In this document: positions 6,921 through 49,019 of the stretch, piece by piece
Layout: each line of letters opens with the position of its first letter
How positions within the stretch are numbered: position 1 is the stretch's first letter
Source of the DNA: a bacterium
GTDB taxonomy: Bacteria; Patescibacteriota; Minisyncoccia; 1-14-0-10-42-19
Length of the DNA: 64,000 nucleotides
Direction: 5' to 3'
NCBI GenBank assembly: GCA_030690215.1
Contig: JAUYHD010000016.1
Coordinates: forward strand, 17,681-81,680
Translations under genes and position numbers: made by a program
The notes under the pieces: model-generated
What the model saw: the letters and a program-made list of their open reading frames with translations, nothing else
Told to the model about the DNA's origin: nothing
The model's database searches: none

Positions 6921-6935
6921 TCCCGACAGCAAAGG

Positions 6936-7006
6936 TGGACCCGCGGAGAATCGAACTCCGGCCTACCGGATGCAAACCGGTCGTTTTACCACTGAACTAC
7001 GGGCCC
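6936..7006 (-). tRNA. tRNA-Ala (anticodon TGC)
   Basis: Reverse complement GGGCCCGTAGTTCAGTGGTAAAACGACCGGTTTGCATCCGGTAGGCCGGAGTTCGATTCTCCGCGGGTCCA; G3:U70 Ala identity pair; cloverleaf folds; no encoded CCA. Confidence 0.9.
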
Positions 7007-17848: not shown

Positions 17849-18520
17849 ATGGAACGGACATTGGTTTTGATAAAGCCTGACGCGCTTGAAAAGAATTGCG
17901 CGGATGAAATTCTTAACCGCTTTTTAACAAACACATTTGAAATCGCTGCAGTCAAAAAAATTACGGCTACTCCGCTATTGATTGATCGGCATTATCAGAA
18001 AAAGTTCTTAGAAGCCCCCGATGTACGCAATGATGTTGTTGCGTACATAACGTCGGGCCCGATTGTTGCGCTTATTCTTAAACGCCCTGACGCGATTGCC
18101 GGCGCGCGGCTCATCATCGGCCCCCTTCATAAAGCGCCCAAGGGAACAATTCGGGGAGATTTTCCGACAGATGTATTGCGTAATTTGGCGCATGGATCAG
18201 ATTCTCCGGAAGCCGCAGAACACGAAATAGCAGTTTGGTTTGGCGATACTGAAAAGCAAGAAAAATTTTCACAATTGAACCCCGCCGAACGACTATTTAT
18301 CTTAACGGAGATATTCCAAAAAGAAGGCCTTTGTGAAAGCGCGGTTACCGTAGCGGCTCATTGCCTGCGAGAGCTCAAAGAAGTTAATTCATACGAAGAG
18401 ACTGCATCCGGACATGTAGTCAAATACACCGGGCATATCATATGCCTCCCCGACTTCCTGCATAGTGAGACCGCACAGAAACGCTTTGCTGAAATGGGAA
18501 TCCAATCCCCGATACATTAA
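17849..18520 (+). CDS. ndk: Nucleoside diphosphate kinase with a roughly 85-aa C-terminal extension
   Basis: ERTLVLIKPDA, GDFxxDxxRNxxHGSDSPEAAxxEIAxWF motifs. Confidence 0.85.
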   Translation: MERTLVLIKPDALEKNCADEILNRFLTNTFEIAAVKKITATPLLIDRHYQKKFLEAPDVRNDVVAYITSGPIVALILKRPDAIAGARLIIGPLHKAPKGTIRGDFPTDVLRNLAHGSDSPEAAEHEIAVWFGDTEKQEKFSQLNPAERLFILTEIFQKEGLCESAVTVAAHCLRELKEVNSYEETASGHVVKYTGHIICLPDFLHSETAQKRFAEMGIQSPIH

Positions 18521-19388: not shown

Positions 19389-19403
19389 CCGCACTAAAAA
19401 TTT

Positions 19404-19475
19404 GGGCACATAGTTCAGTGGTAGAACGCTGTCCTGATAAGACAGAGGTGCTAGGTTCGATTCCTAGTGTGCCCA
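19404..19475 (+). tRNA. tRNA-Ile (anticodon GAT)
   Basis: GGGCACATAGTTCAGTGGTAGAACGCTGTCCTGATAAGACAGAGGTGCTAGGTTCGATTCCTAGTGTGCCCA; cloverleaf folds; no encoded CCA. Confidence 0.9.
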
Positions 19476-19489
19476 TAAATTTTCCCAAA

Positions 19490-33598: not shown

Positions 33599-33960
33599 GA
33601 CCTCAATAATAAAAGGATTATACTGATACTTGGTATGAAAGACCCAATAATTGTTTAGCTTAATACGTTTTGTTTTTAACAAGTAAACCCACTGCTGTCT
33701 TTGGAGACAGTTTTTGTTTTCCAAAATAGCAGCGGGAGTACTTGGACCAGCAATTTTACAAAAGAGATTAATAAAGTAAGAATCTTTTAAAAACAAAAGA
33801 AAAAGAAATATGCGTTTTCTTTTGTTCCGTTCACATATTTCGCTTGCGCTGCGCGCAATCGCGAAATAAAGTGCCCCGTCGAATGACGGGGCGCGAGAGT
33901 GCGAGAAACTTTGAACGTCCGGTCATCCGACCGGACTCAAAAAGACTCGCTCACTCTCGT

Positions 33961-36192
33961 CTTTTTGAGAGTTTGATCCTAGCTCAGGATGAACGCTGGC
34001 GGCGTGGATAAGGCATGCAAGTCGTACGGTCGTGCCTCTCTATCGCTCAGCACTCCCTAAGCTCAAAGTGTAAAACGAAAAGTTCAAAACTAATGTGAAA
34101 TAATTTCAACAAAGTTGAAATTATTATTCCTCAGTTTTACGTTTTTATTTTTGAGTTTTTAGTTTGAGTGCCGAACGGCAGTGAGGCACGACAGTGGCAG
34201 ACGGGGTAGTAACACGTAGGTACATACCACTGAGACAAGAATAACCCAGAGAAATCTGGGATAATACTTGATAGTCTAGTGATCGATTTTCCCTCACAAG
34301 ATGTTTTAATTTTTAATTCTCAATTATCAATTTTCAATAAAAATTTGGAAATTGAAACTTTCTCGCCTCGCCGTAGCTTTAGCGAAGCGGAAACATTGTC
34401 CGCCAGAGGCGGATCCTCCTCCGGAGGAAAAATTCAAAACAGTCCTTGCGGGTAAAAATCGGTTACTAGTAAAGGTTCGTAAGAACCGCTCGGTGAATGG
34501 CCTGCGGGCTATCAGCTTGTTGGTGAGGTAACGGCTCACCAAGGCTATGACGGCTAGGGGGTGTGAGAGCATGGCCCCCACCAATGGAACTGAGACACGG
34601 TCCATACATCTACGGATGGCTGCAGTCGAGAATATTGGGCAATGGGCGAAAGCCTGACCCAGCGACGCCGCGTGCAGGATGAAGGCCTTCGGGCTGTAAA
34701 CTGCTTTTATGGGGGAGGAATCCCCTCCTTGAGGTTGAGTGTGGTACAATCACGCTATGTATTATGTATATATCCTGAAATTAAATAATGAAAAATTATA
34801 CATCGGATACACTGTGGATTTAAAAAGGCGTATTGTTGAACACGAAACAGGAATGAGTATGCATACTAAAAAATTTTTACCTTGCATGCTTGTTTATTAT
34901 GAAGCATACAAATCACGAAAAGATGCGATGAAGCGTGAGAAAAATCTAAAAAAATTCAAAAGTTCATACAGACAATTAAAAATACGTATTGCTTCAAGTA
35001 TATTCGACACCAAGGAGGGGATGACGTTACCCCATGAATAAGGGCTTGCTAACCTCGTGCCAGCAGCCGCGGTAATACGAGGGGCCCAAGCGTTATCCGG
35101 AATCACTGGGCGTAAAGGGTTCGTAGGGGGTTGTATTAGTCCTATGTTAAAGCCTTCGGCTTAACCGAAGAAATGCATAGGAAACGGTATAACTGGAGGG
35201 TGTGAGAGGCTGATGGAACTCACGGTGTAGGGGTGAAATCCGTTGATATCGTGGGGAACACCAAATGCGAAGGCAATCAGCTGGCGCATTCCTGACCCTG
35301 AAGAACGAAAGCGTGGGGATCGAAAAGGATTAGATACCCTTGTAGTCCACGCCCTAAACGTTGATGACTAGCTATTGGAAGTATCGACCCTTCCAGTGGC
35401 GTAGCTAACGCGTTAAGTCATCCGCCTGGGAATTACGATCGCAAGATTAAAACTCAAAGGAATAGACGGGGACTCGCACAAGCGGTGGAGCATGTGGTTC
35501 AATTCGATGATAAGCGAAAAACCTTACCAGGGCTAGAAATTCTAGTGAAGTCGACCCGAAAGGGACGATGTCTCACAAGGACACTAGGACAGGTGCTGCA
35601 TGGTTGTCGTCAGTTCGTGGTTTGAACTGTTCCCTTAAGTGGGTCAACGAACGCAACCCCCGTTGCCTGTTATACATGTCAGGCAAGACTGCCCCTCACT
35701 TTGCGCACAAGCGCAAAGTGAGTTTACTAGTTACGCCTTGCTCTAGTTTGCTAGTTTAAATTTTACAACTAGAAAACTAAAGTGAGCAGAGCGAACGTAA
35801 CTAGAAAACTCACTTTGTTCGTTTGCGAACAAAGTGAGGGGAGGAAGGTGGGGATGACGCCAAATCAGCATGGCCCTCGACGTCCTGGGCTACACACATG
35901 CTACAATGGCACGTACAAAGGGCCGCAAAAGAGCAATCTGGAGCAAATCCCATCAAAACGTGCCCTAGTTCGGATTGAGGTCTGCAACTTGACCTCATGA
36001 AGCTGGAATCGCTAGTAATCGCAGATCAGCACGCTGCGGTGAATACGTTCTCGAGTCTTGTACTCACCGCCCGTCAAGTCAGGGAAGTCGGGAGTACCCG
36101 AAGTGCCAGGTATCTGGCCCGAAGGTAAGCTCGATAACAAGGACTAAGTCGTAACAAGGCACGGCTAGCGGAAGCTGGTCGTGGATCATTAT
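33961..36192 (+). rRNA. 16S rRNA gene, about 2.23 kb, with four insertions. (a) 34063-34170 hairpin element; (b) about 34275-34480 V2 expansion; (c) about 34720-35020 GIY-YIG ORF; (d) about 35694-35848 palindromic insertion. The 3' end is ...GGATCATTATCT and lacks CCUCC.
   Basis: Conserved blocks AGAGTTTGATCCTAGCTCAG, GTGCCAGCAGCCGCGGTAATAC, GGATTAGATACCCTTGTAGTCC, GCATGTGGTTCAATTCGATG, TACACACCGCCCGTCA, AAGTCGTAACAAGG read in order. Confidence 0.9.
34757..35041 (+). CDS. GIY-YIG nuclease-family ORF embedded in the 16S rRNA V3 insertion (possible intron-encoded homing endonuclease)
   Basis: MYYVYILKLNNEKLYIGYTVDLKRRIVEHETG is a canonical GIY-YIG motif; the ORF 3' end runs into the conserved TGACGTTACC rRNA sequence. 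Confidence 0.7.
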   Translation: MYYVYILKLNNEKLYIGYTVDLKRRIVEHETGMSMHTKKFLPCMLVYYEAYKSRKDAMKREKNLKKFKSSYRQLKIRIASSIFDTKEGMTLPHE

Positions 36193-36338
36193 CTAAACTA
36201 TTTCCGATATTCATTTGATTTTTATCAAAAGAAGAAGCGGAACAGTTAGGCGATACTCCCACTGGGAGTAATAGGTGTTAGTCGCGGAGCCTTTAAATCG
36301 CGACTTGAACGGAGCAAAAGAAAACGCACATACACAAA

Positions 36339-41705: not shown

Positions 41706-43955
41706 TTACTTGCTGTATTGAACTGCTTCCTCAAGCTTCAACGACAATATTTTTGAGACACCTTCGCTCCCCATCGTGACACCATACAAAATACCCGCGT
41801 GTCTCATGGATTCGCGATTGTGAGTGATGATAACCAATTGGGTCCCCTTAGAAAGAAGCCCAAGCATCTGCCCATATTTCCGGGAATTGTTTTCGTCCAA
41901 TGCCGCATCCATTTCATCCAACACCAAAAATGGAGGCGGGTTAACACTTGAAAGAGCAAACAAAAGCGCGATAGACGTAAGAGCGCGCTCTCCGCCCGAA
42001 AGCATATCAAGCCCGCGTATGCGTTTTTTAGGCAAATTCACATATACATCAAGACCTGTCATATAATGCGCATGCCTACCCGATGCCCCGTCTTCTTCGA
42101 GCATATCTTCCCCGACAGAAACATCCTGTTCGGCGCCTTCCCCAGAGTCAATTAACTCCGTCGGAACTTTAATTTTTAAAAGTTTCAGTTCTGCTTTTCC
42201 TCCCCCAAAAATAGTTTCAAAATGCTTTTGGAATTCGTGATTTATCTTAGAAATGCCTTTTTCAAATTCGCTTTCTAATTTCCCGGAAAGCTCTTCAGAC
42301 AAATGCTTCAGACCAGAAGATGCTTTCTTTAAATCGCCGAGTTCCTTTTCAAAAAAAGCGTCGCGCTCCCCCACCTCATCAAGTTCCTTTAATATCGTCT
42401 CGTCCACCCCGCCCGCGTCTTCCAGCTTAAACTTGAGCCGAGCAATATCCCGCAATATTTTTTCGCGGTCTTGTCCCCGCAACTGTTCGCTCGCGGGAGT
42501 AAGCGAATCAACAGAAATATAATGAGATGCTTCCTGTTTTTCTCTGACATATTCTTCACGGCGCAAGCGTAAACGCTCTTCTTCAATGGATACGCTGCGG
42601 AGAGCATCTTTCATCCGGTTCCCTTGCCCGTCAAGCTCGTAGAGCGCGCGTTCAAGTTCCCGTAATTTTTTTTCATAGCCATGCAGACTGCCTCCCATTT
42701 CTTTTTCTTGCCGTACAAGCGCTCCTTCCTTTTTTTCTATCTCCTGTATTCCGTCTTCAACATGCTTTTTCTCCTGCAGTAGTTTCTGCGTATCCATTCC
42801 GGTTTTTTTTGGTCTTTCTTTTGCATCCGACGAATCAACGCGCGAAAAAAATGACGTAATACGCTCAAGCGCTTCGTGAATAAATGACTGTATCTGGTCT
42901 ATCGCGTCCTCTTCTATCGCGGATGCAAGAATCCCTTCCACCTCGGCAAACAATTCCTCTACATCCTCGCGAGGCACCACCTCATCCATTGACACCCCCT
43001 GTGTTGGGGATTTTGCGGCTTCTATCATTCCTTCAAGCCGCCCCAGATCGTGCGACAAGCGAGATTTTTTATCCCGCAATTCAACAAGTTCGCGGGTAAT
43101 GTTCTGAAACGCGCTCTCATCTGATGCGCTGGCGCTCTTTCGTTCCTTGGCTATAGCGCTTTCAATATCTTTTCTCTTTTTTTCTATCTGCCCCAGCTCT
43201 TTTTGGGGCTCTCCTTTTTTGTCGGCAATATCTTTCTCTAACGCGGCAAGAGATGCTTCTTCCCGCATCAAATAATCCTTATATGCCGCTTCAAGCTCTG
43301 ATCTAAGCTCTTCCGTTTTTTGGAACTTCACCGCTTGTGTCTTCAAGAACTTCAAATGCGGCTGGATTTCTTTGCGCAACGCCTCAACTTGCTTCATATT
43401 TTCAGCGGTGCGTTCAAGCTTCCTATCCGCCTCCGCACGCTTAATTTGGTATATCTTGAGGCCTAACGCGTCTTCAACCATCTCTTTGCGCTCTTTGGAA
43501 GACGCGTACAAAATTCTGTCCGCCTCTCCCTGCCCGATAATATGGTGTTGCGAAGATCCAAGGCCAACATGCGCTAAAAGCTCCATAATATCTTTGAGAC
43601 GCACAATAGAACCGTTAATCATATATTCGTTTACGCCGTCGCGATACACATTGCGCGAAAGTATCACTTCATTAAATTCAACAGGAAATTGGTTTTTTGT
43701 ATTATCAAATACCAGTGTTGCTGACGCCTTGGACATGCGCGGTATTGAATGCGAACCGCTAAATATCAAATCCTCTCCCTTCTTTCCGCGAAGGGACTTC
43801 ATTGATTGCTCGCCAAGCACCCACCTAATTGCTTCGGCGCAATTACTTTTCCCCGAACCATTCGGGCCTACGATTGCGGTAACGGGTGACGGCAATTCAA
43901 ATACCGTGTTCTTCGCGAATGATTTAAAACCGTTTAGTTCTAATCTCTTTAAATA
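41706..43955 (-). CDS. smc: SMC-family chromosome segregation ATPase, unusually short (about 750 aa, no recognisable hinge)
   Basis: N-terminal LKRLELNGFKSF...IVGPNGSGKSN; C-terminal LSGGERALTSIALLFAL...LVLDEMDAALD signature and D-loop. Confidence 0.75.
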   Translation of the reverse strand, partial: YLKRLELNGFKSFAKNTVFELPSPVTAIVGPNGSGKSNCAEAIRWVLGEQSMKSLRGKKGEDLIFSGSHSIPRMSKASATLVFDNTKNQFPVEFNEVILSRNVYRDGVNEYMINGSIVRLKDIMELLAHVGLGSSQHHIIGQGEADRILYASSKERKEMVEDALGLKIYQIKRAEADRKLERTAENMKQVEALRKEIQPHLKFLKTQAVKFQKTEELRSELEAAYKDYLMREEASLAALEKDIADKKGEPQKELGQIEKKRKDIESAIAKERKSASASDESAFQNITRELVELRDKKSRLSHDLGRLEGMIEAAKSPTQGVSMDEVVPREDVEELFAEVEGILASAIEEDAIDQIQSFIHEALERITSFFSRVDSSDAKERPKKTGMDTQKLLQEKKHVEDGIQEIEKKEGALVRQEKEMGGSLHGYEKKLRELERALYELDGQGNRMKDALRSVSIEEERLRLRREEYVREKQEASHYISVDSLTPASEQLRGQDREKILRDIARLKFKLEDAGGVDETILKELDEVGERDAFFEKELGDLKKASSGLKHLSEELSGKLESEFEKGISKINHEFQKHFETIFGGGKAELKLLKIKVPTELIDSGEGAEQDVSVGEDMLEEDGASGRHAHYMTGLDVYVNLPKKRIRGLDMLSGGERALTSIALLFALSSVNPPPFLVLDEMDAALDENNSRKYGQMLGLLSKGTQLVIITHNRESMRHAGILYGVTMGSEGVSKILSLKLEEAVQYSK

Positions 43956-43959
43956 CATA

Positions 43960-44095
43960 ACATTAAAAACCAAATTCCAAATAACAAATATCAAACAATA
44001 TCCAATTTTCAATAGGCAAGCCCCAAACCGTGTTTTAAATTTGTAATTTTGAATTTGTTTGAGATTTGGATTTTGGTATTTGTCATTTTATCAAA
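43960..44095. repeat. AT-rich simple-sequence region of CAAAT/ATTCCAAA-type units (family shared with 4845-4930, the trmD insert, the 16S V2 insert and 62200-62260)
   Basis: Read directly. Confidence 0.55.
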
Positions 44096-44783
44096 TCCAC
44101 CCTTTTACCTCCAGCGCTTTCCGTGCCGCCTCTTCCTGCGCTATCTGCTTTGACGGGCCTTCGCCCTCCGCGACTTTCTCCTCATCCAAAAAAATACCGA
44201 TAACAAAATGCTTATCGTGGTCAGGCCCCCACTCTTTGATAACGCTGTATGTCGGCGTAACACCGTGTCTATCCTGCGCTTCTTCCTGAAACATGCTCTT
44301 TGGGTCTTTGTATAATTTTTTCTCAATAATTTCGTCTAACTGCGGCATGAGTACGCGCTCCAAAAAATCCTTTACTTCACCATATCCCCGGTCCAGATAC
44401 AAAGCGCCCGAAAGCGCCTCAAACGTATTTGCAAGAATATATTGGCGCGCGCGTCCCATATCCTTTGACTCTCCGCGTGAAAGGAGAAGGTGGTCGCCTA
44501 CATGCAGAATGCCTGCGACTTCCGCGAGCATCTTGGTATTCACAAGAGCAGCCCGAAAGCTCGTGAGTTCCCCTTCGGGCTTTTCAGGAAAACGCAAAAA
44601 CAAAGCTTCGGTAATAACAAGCTCAATGACCGCATCGCCCAAAAATTCAAGGCGTTCATTATGCGGGTATTTCCAATCGGTGTTCTCGTTTAAATACGAA
44701 CGATGCGTAAGGGCTTCATATAACAGACTCTTGTTTATAAAGCTGACGCCGAGACTCTGCTCAAGACCGGATAAATCTTTCAT
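44091..44783 (-). CDS. rnc: Ribonuclease III
   Basis: ERLEFLGDAV signature; C-terminal dsRBD. Confidence 0.9.
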   Translation of the reverse strand: MKDLSGLEQSLGVSFINKSLLYEALTHRSYLNENTDWKYPHNERLEFLGDAVIELVITEALFLRFPEKPEGELTSFRAALVNTKMLAEVAGILHVGDHLLLSRGESKDMGRARQYILANTFEALSGALYLDRGYGEVKDFLERVLMPQLDEIIEKKLYKDPKSMFQEEAQDRHGVTPTYSVIKEWGPDHDKHFVIGIFLDEEKVAEGEGPSKQIAQEEAARKALEVKGWI

Positions 44784-44897
44784 CGTTGAAACTCAAAACG
44801 CAAAGTTTAAAGCGTAAAACTACAACGTAAAGCTAAAAGGTTTTTTGTTTTAAGCTGTAGTTTTGACTTTTGAGCTCTAAACTTTGAGCTTTTTAAA

Positions 44898-45794
44898 TTA
44901 CTTTAATAATATCTTTAATGCTTTTTCTAATAATGGCTTAATATCAGGGTAGGTTTTTACGCCAACAACCTCATCCTGCCCGAACCAGCGCACATCATCA
45001 AGCCCCCCCGATTCTTTAAGGTGCAATTCTTTCTCTTTCGTCTCTATCAAAAAATATGTCACCCGCTTTCTGATTTTTCCTTTTTCGGGGTCGGAGGCGA
45101 CATATTCGTTCGTGCCCATCTCTTCTCCCATGCGCACATCCGCAATACCAAGCTCCTCCCGAATTTTACGCGCCGTTCCTTTTTCCACATCAACCTTGCC
45201 CGTGCCCAACTTTCCCTTGGAAAGCGTCCAGTACCCGAACACGTCATGCACAAGGGCAAACAAAAGCACATCACCCTCTCTGCGGTACACCACGCCCCCG
45301 CCAAGATGCTCTACCGGAAGTTTTGACATATCTCCCTCAAACAGCTTTTTACCGGTGTCATCTTTGCCCGGCTCGCCTATCTCTTTATATACAGTCCCCA
45401 AAACGCCATTTACAAAACGGCCGGACGATTCTCCGCCAAAGTTCTTTGCAAGCTCAATTGCTTCGTTAATCGCGACTTTCGGAGGCACCTCGTCGCGCTT
45501 GCCGAACAAAAGCTCCCATAAACCAAGGCGCAATACGTTGCGGTCCACTCGCGCGACCTGTTCAATGGGCCACTCGGGTGCCGCCTTTTCAATAATAGAA
45601 TCTATTTTTTTTCTTTTCTTGAGAACACCGTACACAAGCACCTCTGCAAAATCATCGTCATCTTCAACACCGGGCGCGAATTCCCTTGTATTACGCAGAA
45701 GCATTTCTTTTATCTGGGCGTCGTCATACCCAGTAAAATCCCATTCAAAAAGGGTTTGCATCGCGATTGATCGTGAAAGATGTCGGTTGGCCAT
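44898..45794 (-). CDS. NusB-like antitermination domain fused to a C-terminal NUDIX hydrolase domain
   Basis: N-terminus MANRHLSRSIAMQTLFEWDF...NFGGESSGRFVNGVLG (NusB); C-terminus GGGVVYRR...GKLGTGKVDVEKGTARKIREELGI (Nudix box-like). Confidence 0.65.
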   Translation of the reverse strand: MANRHLSRSIAMQTLFEWDFTGYDDAQIKEMLLRNTREFAPGVEDDDDFAEVLVYGVLKKRKKIDSIIEKAAPEWPIEQVARVDRNVLRLGLWELLFGKRDEVPPKVAINEAIELAKNFGGESSGRFVNGVLGTVYKEIGEPGKDDTGKKLFEGDMSKLPVEHLGGGVVYRREGDVLLFALVHDVFGYWTLSKGKLGTGKVDVEKGTARKIREELGIADVRMGEEMGTNEYVASDPEKGKIRKRVTYFLIETKEKELHLKESGGLDDVRWFGQDEVVGVKTYPDIKPLLEKALKILLK

Positions 45795-45912: not shown

Positions 45913-46194
45913 TTATTTTTTGGAAAGCTCCGCCGCCTCCATCGGCTTATCTCCTGCTTCCTGCTCTTCTTGAGCCCGTAATTCCTTCTCTTTGTGTTTT
46001 TTCTCTTTTTTATTGAGTTTCGCGAGCACGTCTATTACTTCGCGCTTGTTGTATGTTCCGCAGTTTTCGCAAATCCGATGCGGAAGTTTTGCCTGATTGC
46101 ATTTTGCGCACACCGAAAGCGCCCCCGGCTTTAGCGCATGATGCGACCGGCGGTTATTTGTGTGTGACTTGGTGTGCCTCATTCGTACTACCAT
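45913..46194 (-). CDS. rpmF: 50S ribosomal protein L32 with a charged C-terminal extension
   Basis: [21 protein letters not shown]...C..C...H..C..CG. Confidence 0.8.
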
Positions 46195-46583: not shown

Positions 46584-47930
46584 CTACAATGTACACTTCG
46601 GCATCTTCCATTCTTTGACCATGGCATCAACCGCCGCTTGCCCCATCGCTGTTTTTACCCCTTTTTCAAAATTGCACAATGCTATGCGGGGCCCCTTCAC
46701 AAGCCCGGGAATACTTAATGCCGAAAAGAGATTTTTCATTTTAGCTGTCCCGTATTTATTGTGGAGCCCATCAAGCACCACCGCCATAATGTCCCATGGG
46801 ATTATTTCCGTATCATTCCTTTTCACCGTCTTGCCCGCATTCGTATCAATATACACATCAAGCAATGTCAAAGAGAAATCGCTCTTGAACGCCGCGACCT
46901 CTTTTGAAAATCCGGGAAAGTTATTATTAGTCGCGAATACATTAACGCCTACCGCGCGCCCGCACCGAAGAGCCGTATAATGAGGAGTAAACGCTCCCGG
47001 ATAAAGCACGTCCATATGATCATAAAATGGGAATTTCGTTCCTCTGCCCATCTCGTAATACGCTATCCAATGATCCCCCGGATTTGTAATATCAAATTGA
47101 TTCCATACGCTCTGGAGAATCTCTGCTTTCATACCCGCACCGCACCCTGCACCGCACGTGGTCGGCGCAACCCCAACTATCGCCGTCTTTACCCCGCGAT
47201 GATCGTCAAAATAAGGGCCCGCAACCGAACCATAGAGCGTGGTATATGTTTGCCTACATACCGCATACCACTTCATAAACCTAGTAACATCTCCCAGTGA
47301 ATATTTGCTTGTGGGTGGCGCGTAGAATGAGACAAGCGGCAACGAATAACCATGTCGGGTAAATGTCCCTTTGTGCCCATCATATGTGACTATTCCATGG
47401 TCTTTAGCAAGCCCCGCTGTCGTATTTGAAGGTGGAGGCGGGGTCACGGTAGAAGAAAACGATTCTACTTTCATAGAAGACATCTTGTCGTTCCATCCAT
47501 CGTCTACCAATGTTGAATCACCTACGGTCCGCTTGATTGAAGCTCCGCCAAAATTATCAAGATTATACAAAATAACACGATACCCCGACGGAACCCGAAA
47601 GGAAGAAATTGTATTATTTGAAATCCCACACGCTTTGAGTTTTGCGAGCGTGTATTCTCCTGGGCCGAATCCTGCCGAAGCCCCCTTAAAATTGATATCT
47701 ACATACACTCGTACTGGGCCGTTACATACCTTCAATGAGGGTTGCTCTATAGCTGACGGGAATGAAAATCTAAGGAACCAAGGTACGGCCGAGTAATTAA
47801 ATGGACCATTAAAATTCATCTGAATAAAAATGCTGATCCCTATCAAGACAGAAAATGCAAAAAAAACAAGCGTGTGTTTCCCCGTATTTTTAATATTTTT
47901 ATCCAAAAATTTTTTTAGCGCCTTGAACAT
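46584..47930 (-). CDS. Secreted/membrane-anchored protein with a beta/gamma-crystallin domain paralogous to that of the giant protein, plus a 290-aa C-terminal domain of unknown function
   Basis: VCNGPVRVYVDINFKGASAGFGPGEYTLAKLKACGISNNTISSFRVPSGYRVILYNLDNFGGASIKRTVGDSTLVDDGWND against giant-protein ...DDSTLVDDGFND. Confidence 0.55.
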   Translation of the reverse strand: MFKALKKFLDKNIKNTGKHTLVFFAFSVLIGISIFIQMNFNGPFNYSAVPWFLRFSFPSAIEQPSLKVCNGPVRVYVDINFKGASAGFGPGEYTLAKLKACGISNNTISSFRVPSGYRVILYNLDNFGGASIKRTVGDSTLVDDGWNDKMSSMKVESFSSTVTPPPPSNTTAGLAKDHGIVTYDGHKGTFTRHGYSLPLVSFYAPPTSKYSLGDVTRFMKWYAVCRQTYTTLYGSVAGPYFDDHRGVKTAIVGVAPTTCGAGCGAGMKAEILQSVWNQFDITNPGDHWIAYYEMGRGTKFPFYDHMDVLYPGAFTPHYTALRCGRAVGVNVFATNNNFPGFSKEVAAFKSDFSLTLLDVYIDTNAGKTVKRNDTEIIPWDIMAVVLDGLHNKYGTAKMKNLFSALSIPGLVKGPRIALCNFEKGVKTAMGQAAVDAMVKEWKMPKCTL

Positions 47931-47951: not shown

Positions 47952-48575
47952 CTATATAAACTTACCGCAAAATGAGCGCCTATGGATGTCGCATAATCCG
48001 TACTTTCTTAGGGCTTTTTCATGTGCTCGTGTGCCGTACCCTTTATGAATATCAAAACCGTATTTGGGGTAAACTTTTGCAAGACGCACCATTCTCCTAT
48101 CGCGCGTTACTTTTGCCATGATTGAAGCGGCGGCAATAATAGGCATCCGCCTATCTCCTCCTATAATAGTCTGCTGATTTTTGTATTCTTGAGGCGCTCG
48201 TAACCCTCCGTCTAATAAAATACGGGAATTATGAATCAAGAATCTAGAATCAAGAAGCGCTATTTTTCTTAACGAACGACGAATCGCAAGATGAGTTGCT
48301 CTCGCAATGCCAATCTTATCAATCACCGAATGGCTTACCGAAGAAGTAGCATAAAACAATCTATTCTCACGCGAATGCCTGCGCAAAACCTTAAACCATT
48401 CTTCCCGCTTCTTAACCGAAAGCGCCTTGGAATCTTTAATTCCCCTAAACAGTTTCGAATTTCGTGCTTCATATTTCGAATTTACCATTGTCGCTACTGC
48501 GCAAATGGTTATCGGTCCCGCGAGCGGTCCTCTCCCCACTTCGTCTATACCGAGAATAAATCTATGCTTTGCCAT
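47952..48575 (-). CDS. rnhB: Ribonuclease HII
   Basis: ILGIDEVGRGPLAGP motif; start set at MAKHRF. Confidence 0.85.
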   Translation of the reverse strand: MAKHRFILGIDEVGRGPLAGPITICAVATMVNSKYEARNSKLFRGIKDSKALSVKKREEWFKVLRRHSRENRLFYATSSVSHSVIDKIGIARATHLAIRRSLRKIALLDSRFLIHNSRILLDGGLRAPQEYKNQQTIIGGDRRMPIIAAASIMAKVTRDRRMVRLAKVYPKYGFDIHKGYGTRAHEKALRKYGLCDIHRRSFCGKFI

Positions 48576-48638
48576 TGTTTTTATTATACCACCCATGCTA
48601 TTCTCAAGAATGAAATTGAAAATACAGAAGGAGGAAAA

Positions 48639-49019
48639 GTGCAGAAATTTTCGAAAGAATCCATTGAAAAAATGGTGAAGACAAAATCCCAAGAGATACA
48701 AAAGAAATGGGAACAGCCGGCAAAACCCCCAAAGCTATGGGGAACCATAATGCTTCAGATGTTCCATAGAGCGCATATCATTGTTAATAATCTTGGCCTT
48801 TGTAAAAATCCGGTTTCTCTCACGGCGAATGTCGCACTAATTATTACCGACCTGCACATGGAATTTTCGGGGAAGGTCCCGTCAGACGAAGATGAATTTA
48901 AAAAGGCTATCAAAAAAACCACAAGAAAATGGGCAAAACAGGGCAGTAAAAAGAGATTCTGCCATGGAACTACTACTGGCCTTGTCTGTTATTGTGACGA
49001 AAAGGAGACGAATAGATGA
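48639..49019 (+). CDS. Small Cys/His-motif protein, paralog 1 (126 aa; C-terminal KKRFCHGTTTGLVCYCDE)
   Basis: GTG start with AGGAGG 5 nt upstream; shares the MxKF N-terminus and C-H-x7-C-x-C-D-E tail with 49016-49396 and 50037-50414. Confidence 0.5.
   Translation: MQKFSKESIEKMVKTKSQEIQKKWEQPAKPPKLWGTIMLQMFHRAHIIVNNLGLCKNPVSLTANVALIITDLHMEFSGKVPSDEDEFKKAIKKTTRKWAKQGSKKRFCHGTTTGLVCYCDEKETNR

Follow-up and report, generated by a model that had tools for sequence, protein, structure and literature searches.

A NusB protein fused to an Ap4A hydrolase-like Nudix domain with a degenerate Nudix box in a Parcubacteria-group CPR bacterium

This study revealed that the nusB gene of a Parcubacteria-group CPR bacterium encodes a NusB domain and a Nudix-fold domain in one polypeptide. 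The complete coding sequence was found at 44898..45794 on the minus strand of the window, as we call the whole 64,000-nucleotide stretch of DNA that was analyzed, and comprises an ATG start and 298 amino acids followed by a stop codon. The gene is best read as the organism's nusB, in the form that is typical of Parcubacteria-group CPR bacteria. Its product is identical to NCBI MDP2676392.1, whose record is annotated as NusB only, and public records generally label NusB-Nudix proteins as plain NusB, thereby omitting half of the protein. The AF2 model of the fusion protein, with a mean pLDDT of 88, shows two folded domains and a disordered linker: an all-helical NusB domain (aa 1-139; 45378..45794, minus strand), the linker (aa 140-160; 45315..45377, minus strand) and a Nudix-fold domain of the Ap4A-hydrolase/RppH-like branch (aa 161-298; 44901..45314, minus strand). 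An earlier note on this DNA had proposed that both domains occur in one chain, and the Pfam scores of both, which exceed their cutoffs, bear this out. From the sequence comparisons described below, we propose, with about even confidence, that the protein is a genuine NusB carrying a tethered Nudix module that would bind a nucleotide or an RNA 5' end and would be weakly catalytic or non-catalytic in this organism.

The identification of the N-terminal part as NusB, also proposed earlier, was confirmed at the level of both sequence and fold. It matches PF01029 over aa 7-137 (E 1.7e-35, 122.8 bits vs a Pfam cutoff of 23.1) and passes the cutoff of the nusB equivalog model TIGR01951 of NCBIfam, with 130.2 bits vs 88.35. 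In the AF2 model, it forms seven helices with pLDDT mostly >85, and Foldseek superimposed it on 3r2c, 3r2d and 1tzv with TM(target) values of 0.82-0.88, an rmsd of ~2 Å and 32-35% identity. The single-domain architecture of NusB is not found in the window protein; the NusB domain itself is intact. As weak matches to RsmB models were also obtained for this domain, and as rRNA-acting enzymes may employ a NusB-like domain for RNA binding, the domain might, by the logic of RsmB, be no antitermination factor at all and act only to target the Nudix module to RNA. We regard this as very improbable, given that the NusB equivalog cutoff is passed (130 vs 88 bits), whereas the score for RsmB (TIGR00563 / PRK14902) is far below its cutoff (58 bits vs 319), the match covering the NusB region only. 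Moreover, no SAM-dependent methyltransferase domain was found by Pfam in the fusion protein, no second NusB is encoded within the 64-kb window, and the lineage shows the fused form alone in the loci examined.

The NusB-Nudix architecture is conserved across a whole lineage within CPR. The earlier note had suggested looking for the same fusion in the NusB orthologues of related genomes, and PF01029 was found together with PF00293 in 120/120 of the best homologues listed. Likewise, in 80/80 retained species-level genomes, which belong to Niyogi-, Giovannoni- and Nomurabacteria and other Parcubacteria, the match runs through the two domains and reaches at least query residue 289. It is therefore hardly conceivable that the fusion is an artefact, be it a chimera of the assembly, a frameshift introduced in sequencing or an overlooked stop codon that merged two genes: a single ORF with a conserved linker recurs in hundreds of independent assemblies from different projects, and no point in favor of an artefact was found. 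The linker core is predicted to be disordered (pLDDT <50 for aa 142-150 in the AF2 model) and the linker carries the motif G140-E141-P142-G143-K144, in which, across 83 homologues, the first three residues do not vary and the conservation of the last two reaches at least 90%. A Rosetta-stone test found no adjacent split nusB and nudix genes in other lineages, one contig being too short to judge. The nearest true stand-alone relatives show 31-36% identity and lie in unrelated contexts, which are phage-/integrase-like or defence-island-like. The one high-identity match that looked stand-alone, P0121, was rejected, its gene being cut by the contig end and followed by rnc. In the literature, we found neither a report of NusB fused to a Nudix domain nor an account of NusB from CPR.

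With regard to the C-terminal domain, Pfam matched PF00293 over aa 167-280 (E 1e-11, 45.4 bits vs a gathering score of 21.1), and Foldseek returned a probability of 1.00 for many structures with the alpha/beta/alpha fold of Nudix proteins, the top ones being Rv2985/MutT1, the Aquifex Ap4A hydrolase, CT771, NUDT2 and Ndx1. A search of the PDB with the family profile gave 3i7u (9e-19), CT771 (4ilq, 9e-16), Ndx1 (1vc8, 5e-14) and NUDT2 (3u53, 2e-13). By both profile and fold, the nearest relatives are thus Nudix proteins of the Ap4A hydrolase type, with an identity of just 21-27%. Weak matches to the RppH models PRK00714 were observed for 26/34 fused domains (best E 6.8e-10 among the 34 members), the window copy being absent among the matches listed, and Dcp2 chains appeared among the matches at E ~1e-9; because all of these matches are far below the curated cutoffs, the fused domain is not a member of RppH or Dcp2. 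No second related Nudix gene was found within the 64-kb window.

The Nudix box, by contrast with the fold, is degenerate in the window copy. The string that the earlier note had quoted as a Nudix box, GKLGTGKVDVEKGTARKIREELGI, was confirmed at aa 194-217 (45144..45215, minus strand), so that the claim stands as far as the string and the Nudix fold are concerned, but the box is not canonical. Alignments to 120 homologues, Ndx1, the Aquifex Ap4A hydrolase and NUDT2 show that it comprises 24 residues instead of 23 and reads GX5K-X8-RKIREELGI, vs the canonical GX5EX7REUXEEXGU. Two of the four conserved glutamates are replaced by lysines, K200 at box position 7 (45195..45197, minus strand) and K210 at box position 16 (45165..45167, minus strand), and V201 (45192..45194, minus strand) constitutes a one-residue insertion. 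In the alignment to solved Ap4A/Ap6A hydrolases, K200 corresponds to the glutamate of GX5E and K210 to E58 of NUDT2, the alanine mutant of which (E58A) is inactive (PMC8616924). The box retains E213 and E214 (E19 and E20), R209 (R15), G1 and G22. The consensus over the 120 homologues is canonical (GHLEEGE-DVEEGTxREVKEELGI), and an orthologue from Niyogibacteria CG10 (P0009) has the intact box GHLEGEEDVKEGTMRELKEELGI.

These differences bear on whether the domain is an active pyrophosphohydrolase of the RppH, Ap4A-hydrolase or decapping type, which NusB would bring to the nascent rRNA leader, thereby coupling antitermination to the hydrolysis of 5' ends or alarmones. Several observations would fit such an enzyme. 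The branch includes Ap4A/Ap6A hydrolases, the diadenosine polyphosphatase MutT1, RppH and Dcp2, and one of its members, NUDT2, dephosphorylates PPP-RNA (PMC8616924). The canonical family consensus, the residues E213, E214 and R209 of the window copy and the conserved synteny with rnc described below are also in line with it, and X8 spacing is found in NUDT16, an active enzyme with the variant box GX5DX8RE..EE. As E213, E214 and R209 are kept and some active Nudix enzymes have variant boxes, residual or altered activity may remain. Nevertheless, the lysine at the position essential in NUDT2, the lysine in place of the GX5E glutamate and the box insertion all argue against an active enzyme. The earlier claim of a pyrophosphatase is thus supported only in part: in the window copy, catalytic glutamates are missing on alignment, an outcome that the earlier note itself had named as telling against it, although many relatives keep the canonical box. 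As the catalytic residues are partly lost, binding of a nucleotide or an RNA 5' end is more likely for this domain than cleavage.

The same tendency was observed among the fused proteins in general. The box keeps its five key residues in 7/35 representatives of fused 50% clusters, 29/78 species genomes and 69/120 close homologues (20-57%), compared with 31/37 stand-alone relatives (84%); the Fisher p values for fused vs stand-alone proteins were 7e-8 and 3e-6. The glutamate at box position 16 is retained in just 45% of diverse fused proteins, its substitutes being K, V, I, A or S, and parsimony counts on a neighbour-joining tree of 230 fused proteins gave at least 38 state changes at this position, vs one to three each for D184, W189, K193, Y231, W270 and Y282. 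Taken with the retention of the box in stand-alone relatives, this pattern leads us to consider an active hydrolase in the window unlikely, though deserving of some weight. The presence of a fully canonical box in 37-57% of the closer fused relatives does argue that hydrolysis is important for some of the family at least.

What is retained resembles a ligand-binding pocket. In 113 diverse fused proteins, K193, Y231 and Y282 are conserved at 96-99%, and W189 and E214 are also among the most conserved residues of the fused Nudix domain. The first three align with K42, Y82 and F128 of NUDT2, which are involved in P1 phosphate binding and adenine stacking (PMC4734340). By these alignments, the adenine-nucleotide pocket of Ap4A hydrolases is kept in the window Nudix domain. 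The domain is also under strong purifying selection in the degenerate-box lineage, where dN/dS was ~0.09 for the Nudix domain vs 0.03-0.05 for NusB; these values are rough and informative qualitatively only, because dS is saturated (>1). Catalytic glutamates that erode while the base and phosphate pocket stays invariant and selection remains purifying form a recognisable pattern, typical of an enzyme that is becoming a binding module.

Alternatively, the Nudix fold could be a purely structural or protein-protein interaction module with neither a small-molecule nor a 5'-end ligand, which might dimerise or replace a component or contact of the antitermination complex that is missing in reduced genomes. 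In E. coli, the rRNA antitermination complex includes SuhB, a protein with an enzyme fold, as a structural component. The dispensability of the catalytic residues in many lineages and the acidic surface of the domain are compatible with such a role, as is the GEPGK linker motif, whose conservation despite predicted disorder hints at a role in interactions. The fused domains have a median pI of 5.1, which gives no support to a general RNA-binding surface. However, the most conserved residues, K193, Y231 and Y282, with W189 and E214, form the phosphate-binding and adenine-stacking set of Ap4A hydrolases, a pattern that is hard to explain without a nucleotide-like ligand, and we therefore judge a purely structural module improbable.

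The genomic context points to a link with rRNA biology. As stated in the earlier note, the gene adjoins rnc and rpmF: rpmF, encoding ribosomal protein L32 (45913..46194, minus strand; Pfam Ribosomal_L32p), lies directly upstream, and rnc, encoding RNase III (44091..44783, minus strand; Pfam Ribonucleas_3_3 and dsrm), directly downstream. They are followed by smc, the last gene of the conserved block (41706..44012, minus strand; Pfam SMC_N), and rnhB is a further neighbour (47952..48701, minus strand). The order rpmF-nusB::nudix-rnc-smc is almost invariant. In the 80 related genomes, rpmF is directly upstream of the fusion gene in 79, rnc is downstream on the same strand in 78, in 76 of them within 600 nt, and smc follows rnc in 67. 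The block is probably co-transcribed, and the conserved synteny with rnc supports a link of the fusion protein to rRNA biology. A SuhB-like gene was observed near the nusB locus of one relative (L082) and is absent at the corresponding place in the window.

The spacer between nusB and rnc is filled by a long imperfect RNA hairpin (44795..44892, minus strand) with an MFE of -33.1 kcal/mol and a z-score of -3.84, none of 200 shuffled sequences being equally stable. The closest relatives have hairpins of differing sequence in the same spacer, and z-scores of -3 or lower were obtained for 23/31 related loci with a nusB-rnc spacer of at least 45 nt. This hairpin is a candidate site for RNase III processing or autoregulation in the rnc leader. 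A BoxA-like motif, TTGTTTTTAACAAG, was found 278 nt upstream of the 16S gene (33670..33683); as the window contains three copies of its core 10-mer, the motif is not statistically distinctive and was not used as evidence.

We propose the following role for a NusB with a tethered, mainly binding Nudix module. Given its family membership, the NusB domain would do its canonical job, binding BoxA in the rRNA leader together with ribosomal protein S10 and thus nucleating the rRNA antitermination complex. The Nudix domain, whose pyrophosphatase activity would be weak or absent in this organism, may have as its ligand an adenine nucleotide or a dinucleoside polyphosphate, or else bind the nascent rRNA leader by its 5'-terminal (p)ppN or cap. 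It would thereby couple the action of NusB, or the fate of the RNase III-cleaved leader, to its ligand, and hydrolysis of this ligand by the domain may persist in those relatives whose box is canonical. A bolder proposal, which we consider speculative and rather unlikely, is that NusB in Parcubacteria-type CPR acquired a pseudo-enzyme sensor, in which catalysis was repeatedly lost and the adenine-polyphosphate pocket kept. Such a sensor might read Ap4A or ATP as an alarmone or energy signal, or might recognise the nascent rRNA leader by its 5'-(p)ppA or Np4A cap, and this signal would gate rRNA antitermination or pass the leader to the co-encoded RNase III. If this were true, rRNA synthesis would be subject to a further layer of control by a ligand, one not described before, in organisms without most of the known regulators.

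The wider significance lies in the nature of the two partners. NusB is a core, near-universal transcription factor, normally one small domain, which in a large uncultivated lineage always carries a second domain, from a family whose members act on dinucleoside polyphosphates and RNA 5' ends, and whose gene lies beside that of RNase III. Should this domain bind or cleave either a nucleotide signal or the rRNA leader at its 5' end, rRNA transcription, rRNA processing and nucleotide signalling would be directly and physically linked in organisms whose regulatory repertoire is minimal.

Compared with known systems, the N-terminal 139 residues share the fold of NusB from Aquifex aeolicus (3R2C, the NusB-NusE-BoxA complex) and Thermotoga maritima (1TZV). 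Canonical NusB is a single domain of ~140 aa, whereas the window protein adds a conserved linker and a 138-aa Nudix-fold domain, and its gene, unlike those of the canonical proteins compared, is placed between rpmF and rnc. RsmB/Sun, which combines a NusB-like N-terminal domain with a 16S rRNA m5C methyltransferase, provides a precedent for a NusB fold linked to an rRNA-acting enzyme fold. However, the N-terminal domain of RsmB is merely NusB-like, whereas that of the window protein is an equivalog-level NusB and its partner is a Nudix fold.

The Ap4A/Ap6A hydrolases (3I7U, 4ILQ, 1VC8, 3U53 and mycobacterial MutT1/Rv2985) share with the fused domain the D..G.WT.PKG motif, the P1-phosphate lysine and the two adenine-stacking aromatic residues. 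These enzymes are free-standing, whereas the window domain is attached to NusB, shows X8 spacing and is missing two box glutamates. RppH and Dcp2, whose targets are RNA 5' ends, fall within this branch in its broad sense; the catalytic glutamate that is usually mutated to inactivate them corresponds to a lysine in the window copy. Non-catalytic Nudix domains are known in RNA processing and regulation: the Nudix folds of NUDT21/CFIm25 (PMC5389931) and of the transcriptional regulator NrtR (PMC2330246), both of which have a degenerate box, act as RNA- or ligand-binding modules of an RNA-processing or transcription factor. The Nudix domain of NrtR (3GZ8) was among the Foldseek matches. Nevertheless, these proteins belong to other Nudix sub-branches and have other partner domains, a winged helix in the case of NrtR, so that their likeness to the window protein is a functional analogy only, and box erosion in the NusB fusions, unlike in NrtR and NUDT21, is partial and lineage-dependent.

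This analysis revealed that the NusB-Nudix fusion is real, widespread in one lineage and present in databases, yet undescribed and uncharacterised. The ORF claimed in the earlier note was found at 44898..45794 on the minus strand, with an ATG start and a length of 298 aa, and its N-terminal part proved to be the NusB proposed there. Pfam assigns aa 7-137 to NusB (E 1.7e-35), and the NCBIfam NusB equivalog TIGR01951 gives 130.2 bits against a cutoff of 88.35. RsmB membership was rejected, as RsmB models cover the NusB-like region only and remain far under their cutoffs. Compared with PDB sequences, the N-terminal half resembles the NusB of Thermotoga, Aquifex, E. coli and Mycobacterium, and the C-terminal half resembles CT771, Ndx1, the Aquifex Ap4A hydrolase and human NUDT2. 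The N-terminal domain is a true NusB domain and a member of NusB. Public records name the protein simply NusB, including the identical NCBI entry MDP2676392.1 ('MAG: transcription antitermination factor NusB [bacterium]'). A full-text literature search returned no published description of a NusB-Nudix fusion and no discussion of NusB in CPR bacteria, and a large review of the Nudix clan does not mention NusB (PMC5389931).

All of the 120 homologues listed (61-100% identity, about 297 aa), whose named sources include Niyogibacteria, Giovannonibacteria, Tagabacteria and 'Patescibacteria group', contain both Pfam domains. When one genome per GTDB species was searched, at least 595 stretches were found to encode relatives, and 80 loci were retained; some of the other roughly 515 may be plain NusB, as the search patterns were drawn from the NusB domain. 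The earlier note had asked whether NusB orthologs of related genomes share the fusion, and all 80 retained loci do, with matches that span both domains and extend at least as far as query residue 289. Their names belong to the Parcubacteria group: Niyogi-, Giovannoni-, Nomura-, Vogel-, Lloyd-, Ryan- and Zambryskibacteria, and Paceibacterota. The claimed neighbours rnc (44091..44783) and rpmF (45913..46194) are both present on the minus strand, like the fusion gene, and this order hardly varies: rpmF lies directly upstream in 79 of the 80 loci, rnc downstream on the same strand in 78, and smc (41706..44012, minus strand, in the window) next after rnc in 67. The fusion is the normal nusB of this lineage, with conserved synteny to rnc.

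The C-terminal domain alone was also searched against 1.84 billion cluster representatives, giving 138 matches at E <= 1e-10. Among the 150 matches listed were about 50 full-length fusions and many gene fragments, together with 37 Nudix proteins that stand alone (about 140-150 aa, identity roughly 30-36%). Where a stand-alone relative could be located on a contig, its context was unrelated: one was phage- or integrase-like and the other resembled a SIR2/PLD/helicase defence island (loci L085 and L086). No split nusB and nudix gene pair was found in these contexts. The sole 'stand-alone' match of high identity, P0121, was discarded: its gene is cut short by the edge of a contig and has rnc after it. 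Fusions of other kinds also contain this Nudix sub-branch (proteins P0148, 379 aa, P0237 and P0266), namely Sigma70_r4 with a DnaA_C HTH and Nudix, an EamA transporter with Nudix, and Nudix with PDZ; the first of these architectures carries 'RK' for 'RE', as the window protein does.

Several features of the surroundings were recorded. The 114 nt that separate the fusion gene from rnc (44784..44897) are occupied by a long imperfect RNA hairpin at 44795..44892 on the minus strand (MFE -33.1 kcal/mol, z -3.84), which none of 200 shuffles equalled in stability and which ends about 10 nt upstream of the rnc start codon. The nearest relatives have a hairpin of different sequence at the same place (L081:6858-6942 and L082:6891-7005), and z is <= -3 in 23 of the 31 related loci whose spacer has 45 nt or more. 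Long double-stranded RNA directly 5' of rnc resembles an RNase III processing or autoregulatory site, for which the E. coli rnc leader is a precedent, making the hairpin a candidate site of RNase III cleavage and processing or of autoregulation. As called mechanically, the smc ORF starts at TTG and has 768 aa, about 35 aa more than the smc genes called in relatives (732-733 aa). Its SMC_N match begins at residue 20 (MYLKRLELNGF), which makes an internal true start probable. Between rnhB (47952..48701, minus strand) and rpmF lies a 448-aa ORF (46584..47930, minus strand) with a weak beta/gamma-crystallin match. This slot is variable, as rnhB directly precedes rpmF in L082, from Niyogibacteria, and L081 has a 511-aa protein and a DUF1385 gene. 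An inositol-monophosphatase-family gene (SuhB-like, PF00459; 4224..4988, minus strand) adjoins rnhB-rpmF-nusB::nudix in L082; at the corresponding place the window has no counterpart, but DUF1861 and dnaE. SuhB is a component of the E. coli rRNA antitermination complex. The 16S rRNA gene of the window (33961..36196, plus strand) measures 2236 nt against a 1533-nt Rfam model, which implies about 700 nt of insertion(s), and ORFs lie within it at 34327..34749 (minus) and 34739..35041 (plus). No 23S or 5S gene adjoins it in the window, and tRNA-Ile(GAT) (19403..19476) and tRNA-Ala(TGC) (6934..7006) are unlinked to it. A BoxA-like TTGTTTTTAACAAG is located at 33670..33683 (plus), 278 nt ahead of the 5' end of the 16S gene, but this match alone is not significant, as its core TTTTTAACAA recurs at 17921 and 30964; E. 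coli boxA is TGCTCTTTAACAA.

An AlphaFold2 model of the window protein, built on 83 homologues (mean pLDDT 88.3, pTM 0.63), has a helical domain of seven helices at aa 2-139 and an alpha/beta domain at aa 161-297. Between them, pLDDT drops below 50 (aa 142-150), so that the domains are predicted to be independent and flexibly tethered. Although the linker (aa 140-160; 45315..45377, minus strand) is predicted to be disordered, it contains the motif G-E-P-G-K-D/E, whose invariance or near-invariance in the family suggests a short linear interaction motif. In Foldseek searches against the PDB, the helical domain resembled NusB structures 3r2c, 3r2d and 1tzv (TM by target 0.82-0.88, rmsd about 2 A). 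The alpha/beta domain resembled Rv2985/MutT1, the Aquifex Ap4A hydrolase, CT771, NUDT2, Ndx1 and the C. elegans Ap4A hydrolase, with the NrtR Nudix domain, BdRppH and Dcp2 lower in the list. When 34 diverse fused Nudix domains were combined in a sequence profile, the ranking agreed (3i7u 9e-19, CT771 9e-16, Ndx1 5e-14, NUDT2 2e-13, then Dcp2 at about 1e-9). NCBIfam MutT1 and RppH models match below threshold only, and by curated cutoffs the domain is not an RppH. The C-terminal domain is a Nudix-fold domain of the Ap4A-hydrolase/RppH branch, nearest to Ap4A-type hydrolases.

The Nudix box claimed in the earlier note stood only in part: the domain is there (Pfam, aa 167-280, E 1e-11, 45.4 bits against a gathering score of 21.1), but the box is not canonical. 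The consensus of the 120 close homologues, G-HLEEG-E-DVEEGTx-RE-V-K-EE-L-G-I, is the canonical GX5EX7REUXEEXGU, whereas the window protein reads G194-KLGTG-K200-V201-DVEKGTA-R209-K210-I-R-E213-E214-L-G-I. Lysine replaces both Glu7 (K200) and Glu16, the glutamate of 'RE' (K210), and V201 is an extra residue present in only 3 of the 120 homologues; R15, E19, E20 and both box glycines are retained. In HMMER alignments, K200 and K210 fall on the GX5E and 'RE' glutamates of Ndx1, the Aquifex Ap4A hydrolase and NUDT2, the latter being NUDT2 E58, whose mutation to alanine abolishes activity on PPP-RNA and PPP-dinucleotides (PMC8616924). K200, the insertion and K210 all recur in P0002, the closest relative (87% identity), which makes them a lineage trait and rules out sequencing error. 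Judged by its sequence, the C-terminal domain of the window protein lacks the defining Nudix box. Variant boxes can nevertheless be active, as in NUDT16 (GX5DX8RE..EE; PMC5389931), and some hydrolysis may persist here, where R209, E213 and E214 are still present. Many relatives have perfect boxes.

Across the fused family, the box, called intact when E7, R15, E16, E19 and E20 are all present, is intact in 7 of 35 representatives of fused clusters at 50% identity, 29 of 78 fused proteins taken from the species genomes and 69 of 120 close homologues. Among the relatives that stand alone it is intact in 31 of 37, and Fisher's exact test against this set gives p = 7e-8 for the representatives and 3e-6 for the species genomes. 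Over a set of 113 diverse fused proteins, the consensus residue has a frequency of 0.45 at E16, 0.70 at E19, 0.80 at R15, 0.82 at E7 and 0.89 at E20, and 0.96-0.99 at G166, D184, F186, W189, T190, K193, Y231, W270 and Y282. A neighbour-joining tree was computed for 230 fused proteins with the box columns left out; on it, Fitch parsimony, which counts minima, gave at least 38 changes at E16, 25 each at E7 and E19, 19 at R15 and 5 at E20, against 1-3 at each of the control positions D184, W189, K193, Y231, W270 and Y282. K193, Y231 and Y282 align with K42, Y82 and F128 of NUDT2. Work on the human and Plasmodium Ap4A hydrolases assigns the holding of the P1 phosphate to K42 and Y82 and the stacking of the adenine ring to Y82 and F128 (PMC4734340). 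The near-invariance of these residues beside a variable box indicates that the nucleotide pocket is far more constrained than the metal-binding glutamates. Box residues were lost repeatedly, and the base and phosphate pocket was kept. Between the window protein and its two nearest relatives, dN/dS is about 0.09 for the Nudix domain and 0.03-0.05 for the NusB domain, values that are only qualitative given saturated synonymous sites. The Nudix domain of this degenerate-box lineage is not decaying and is under purifying selection.

We infer from these residues that the Nudix domain of the window protein binds a ligand rather than hydrolysing it efficiently, whereas that of intact-box relatives may still hydrolyse. 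From what is known of its family, the NusB domain would bind S10 and BoxA in the rRNA leader. The ligand of the Nudix domain in the window organism would be a molecule resembling an adenine nucleotide, or else the nascent leader's 5' end, and the domain could possibly be a pseudo-enzyme ligand sensor on NusB. The fused Nudix domain is acidic (median pI 5.1; 7.0 in the window copy), which is no sign of a general surface for binding RNA. Precedents for such a binding module are NUDT21/CFIm25, a degenerate-box Nudix fold of an RNA-processing factor (GX5EX7RLX2EIXGR; PMC5389931), and the NrtR regulators, in which a degenerate-box Nudix fold serves as the binding module of a transcription factor (PMC2330246).
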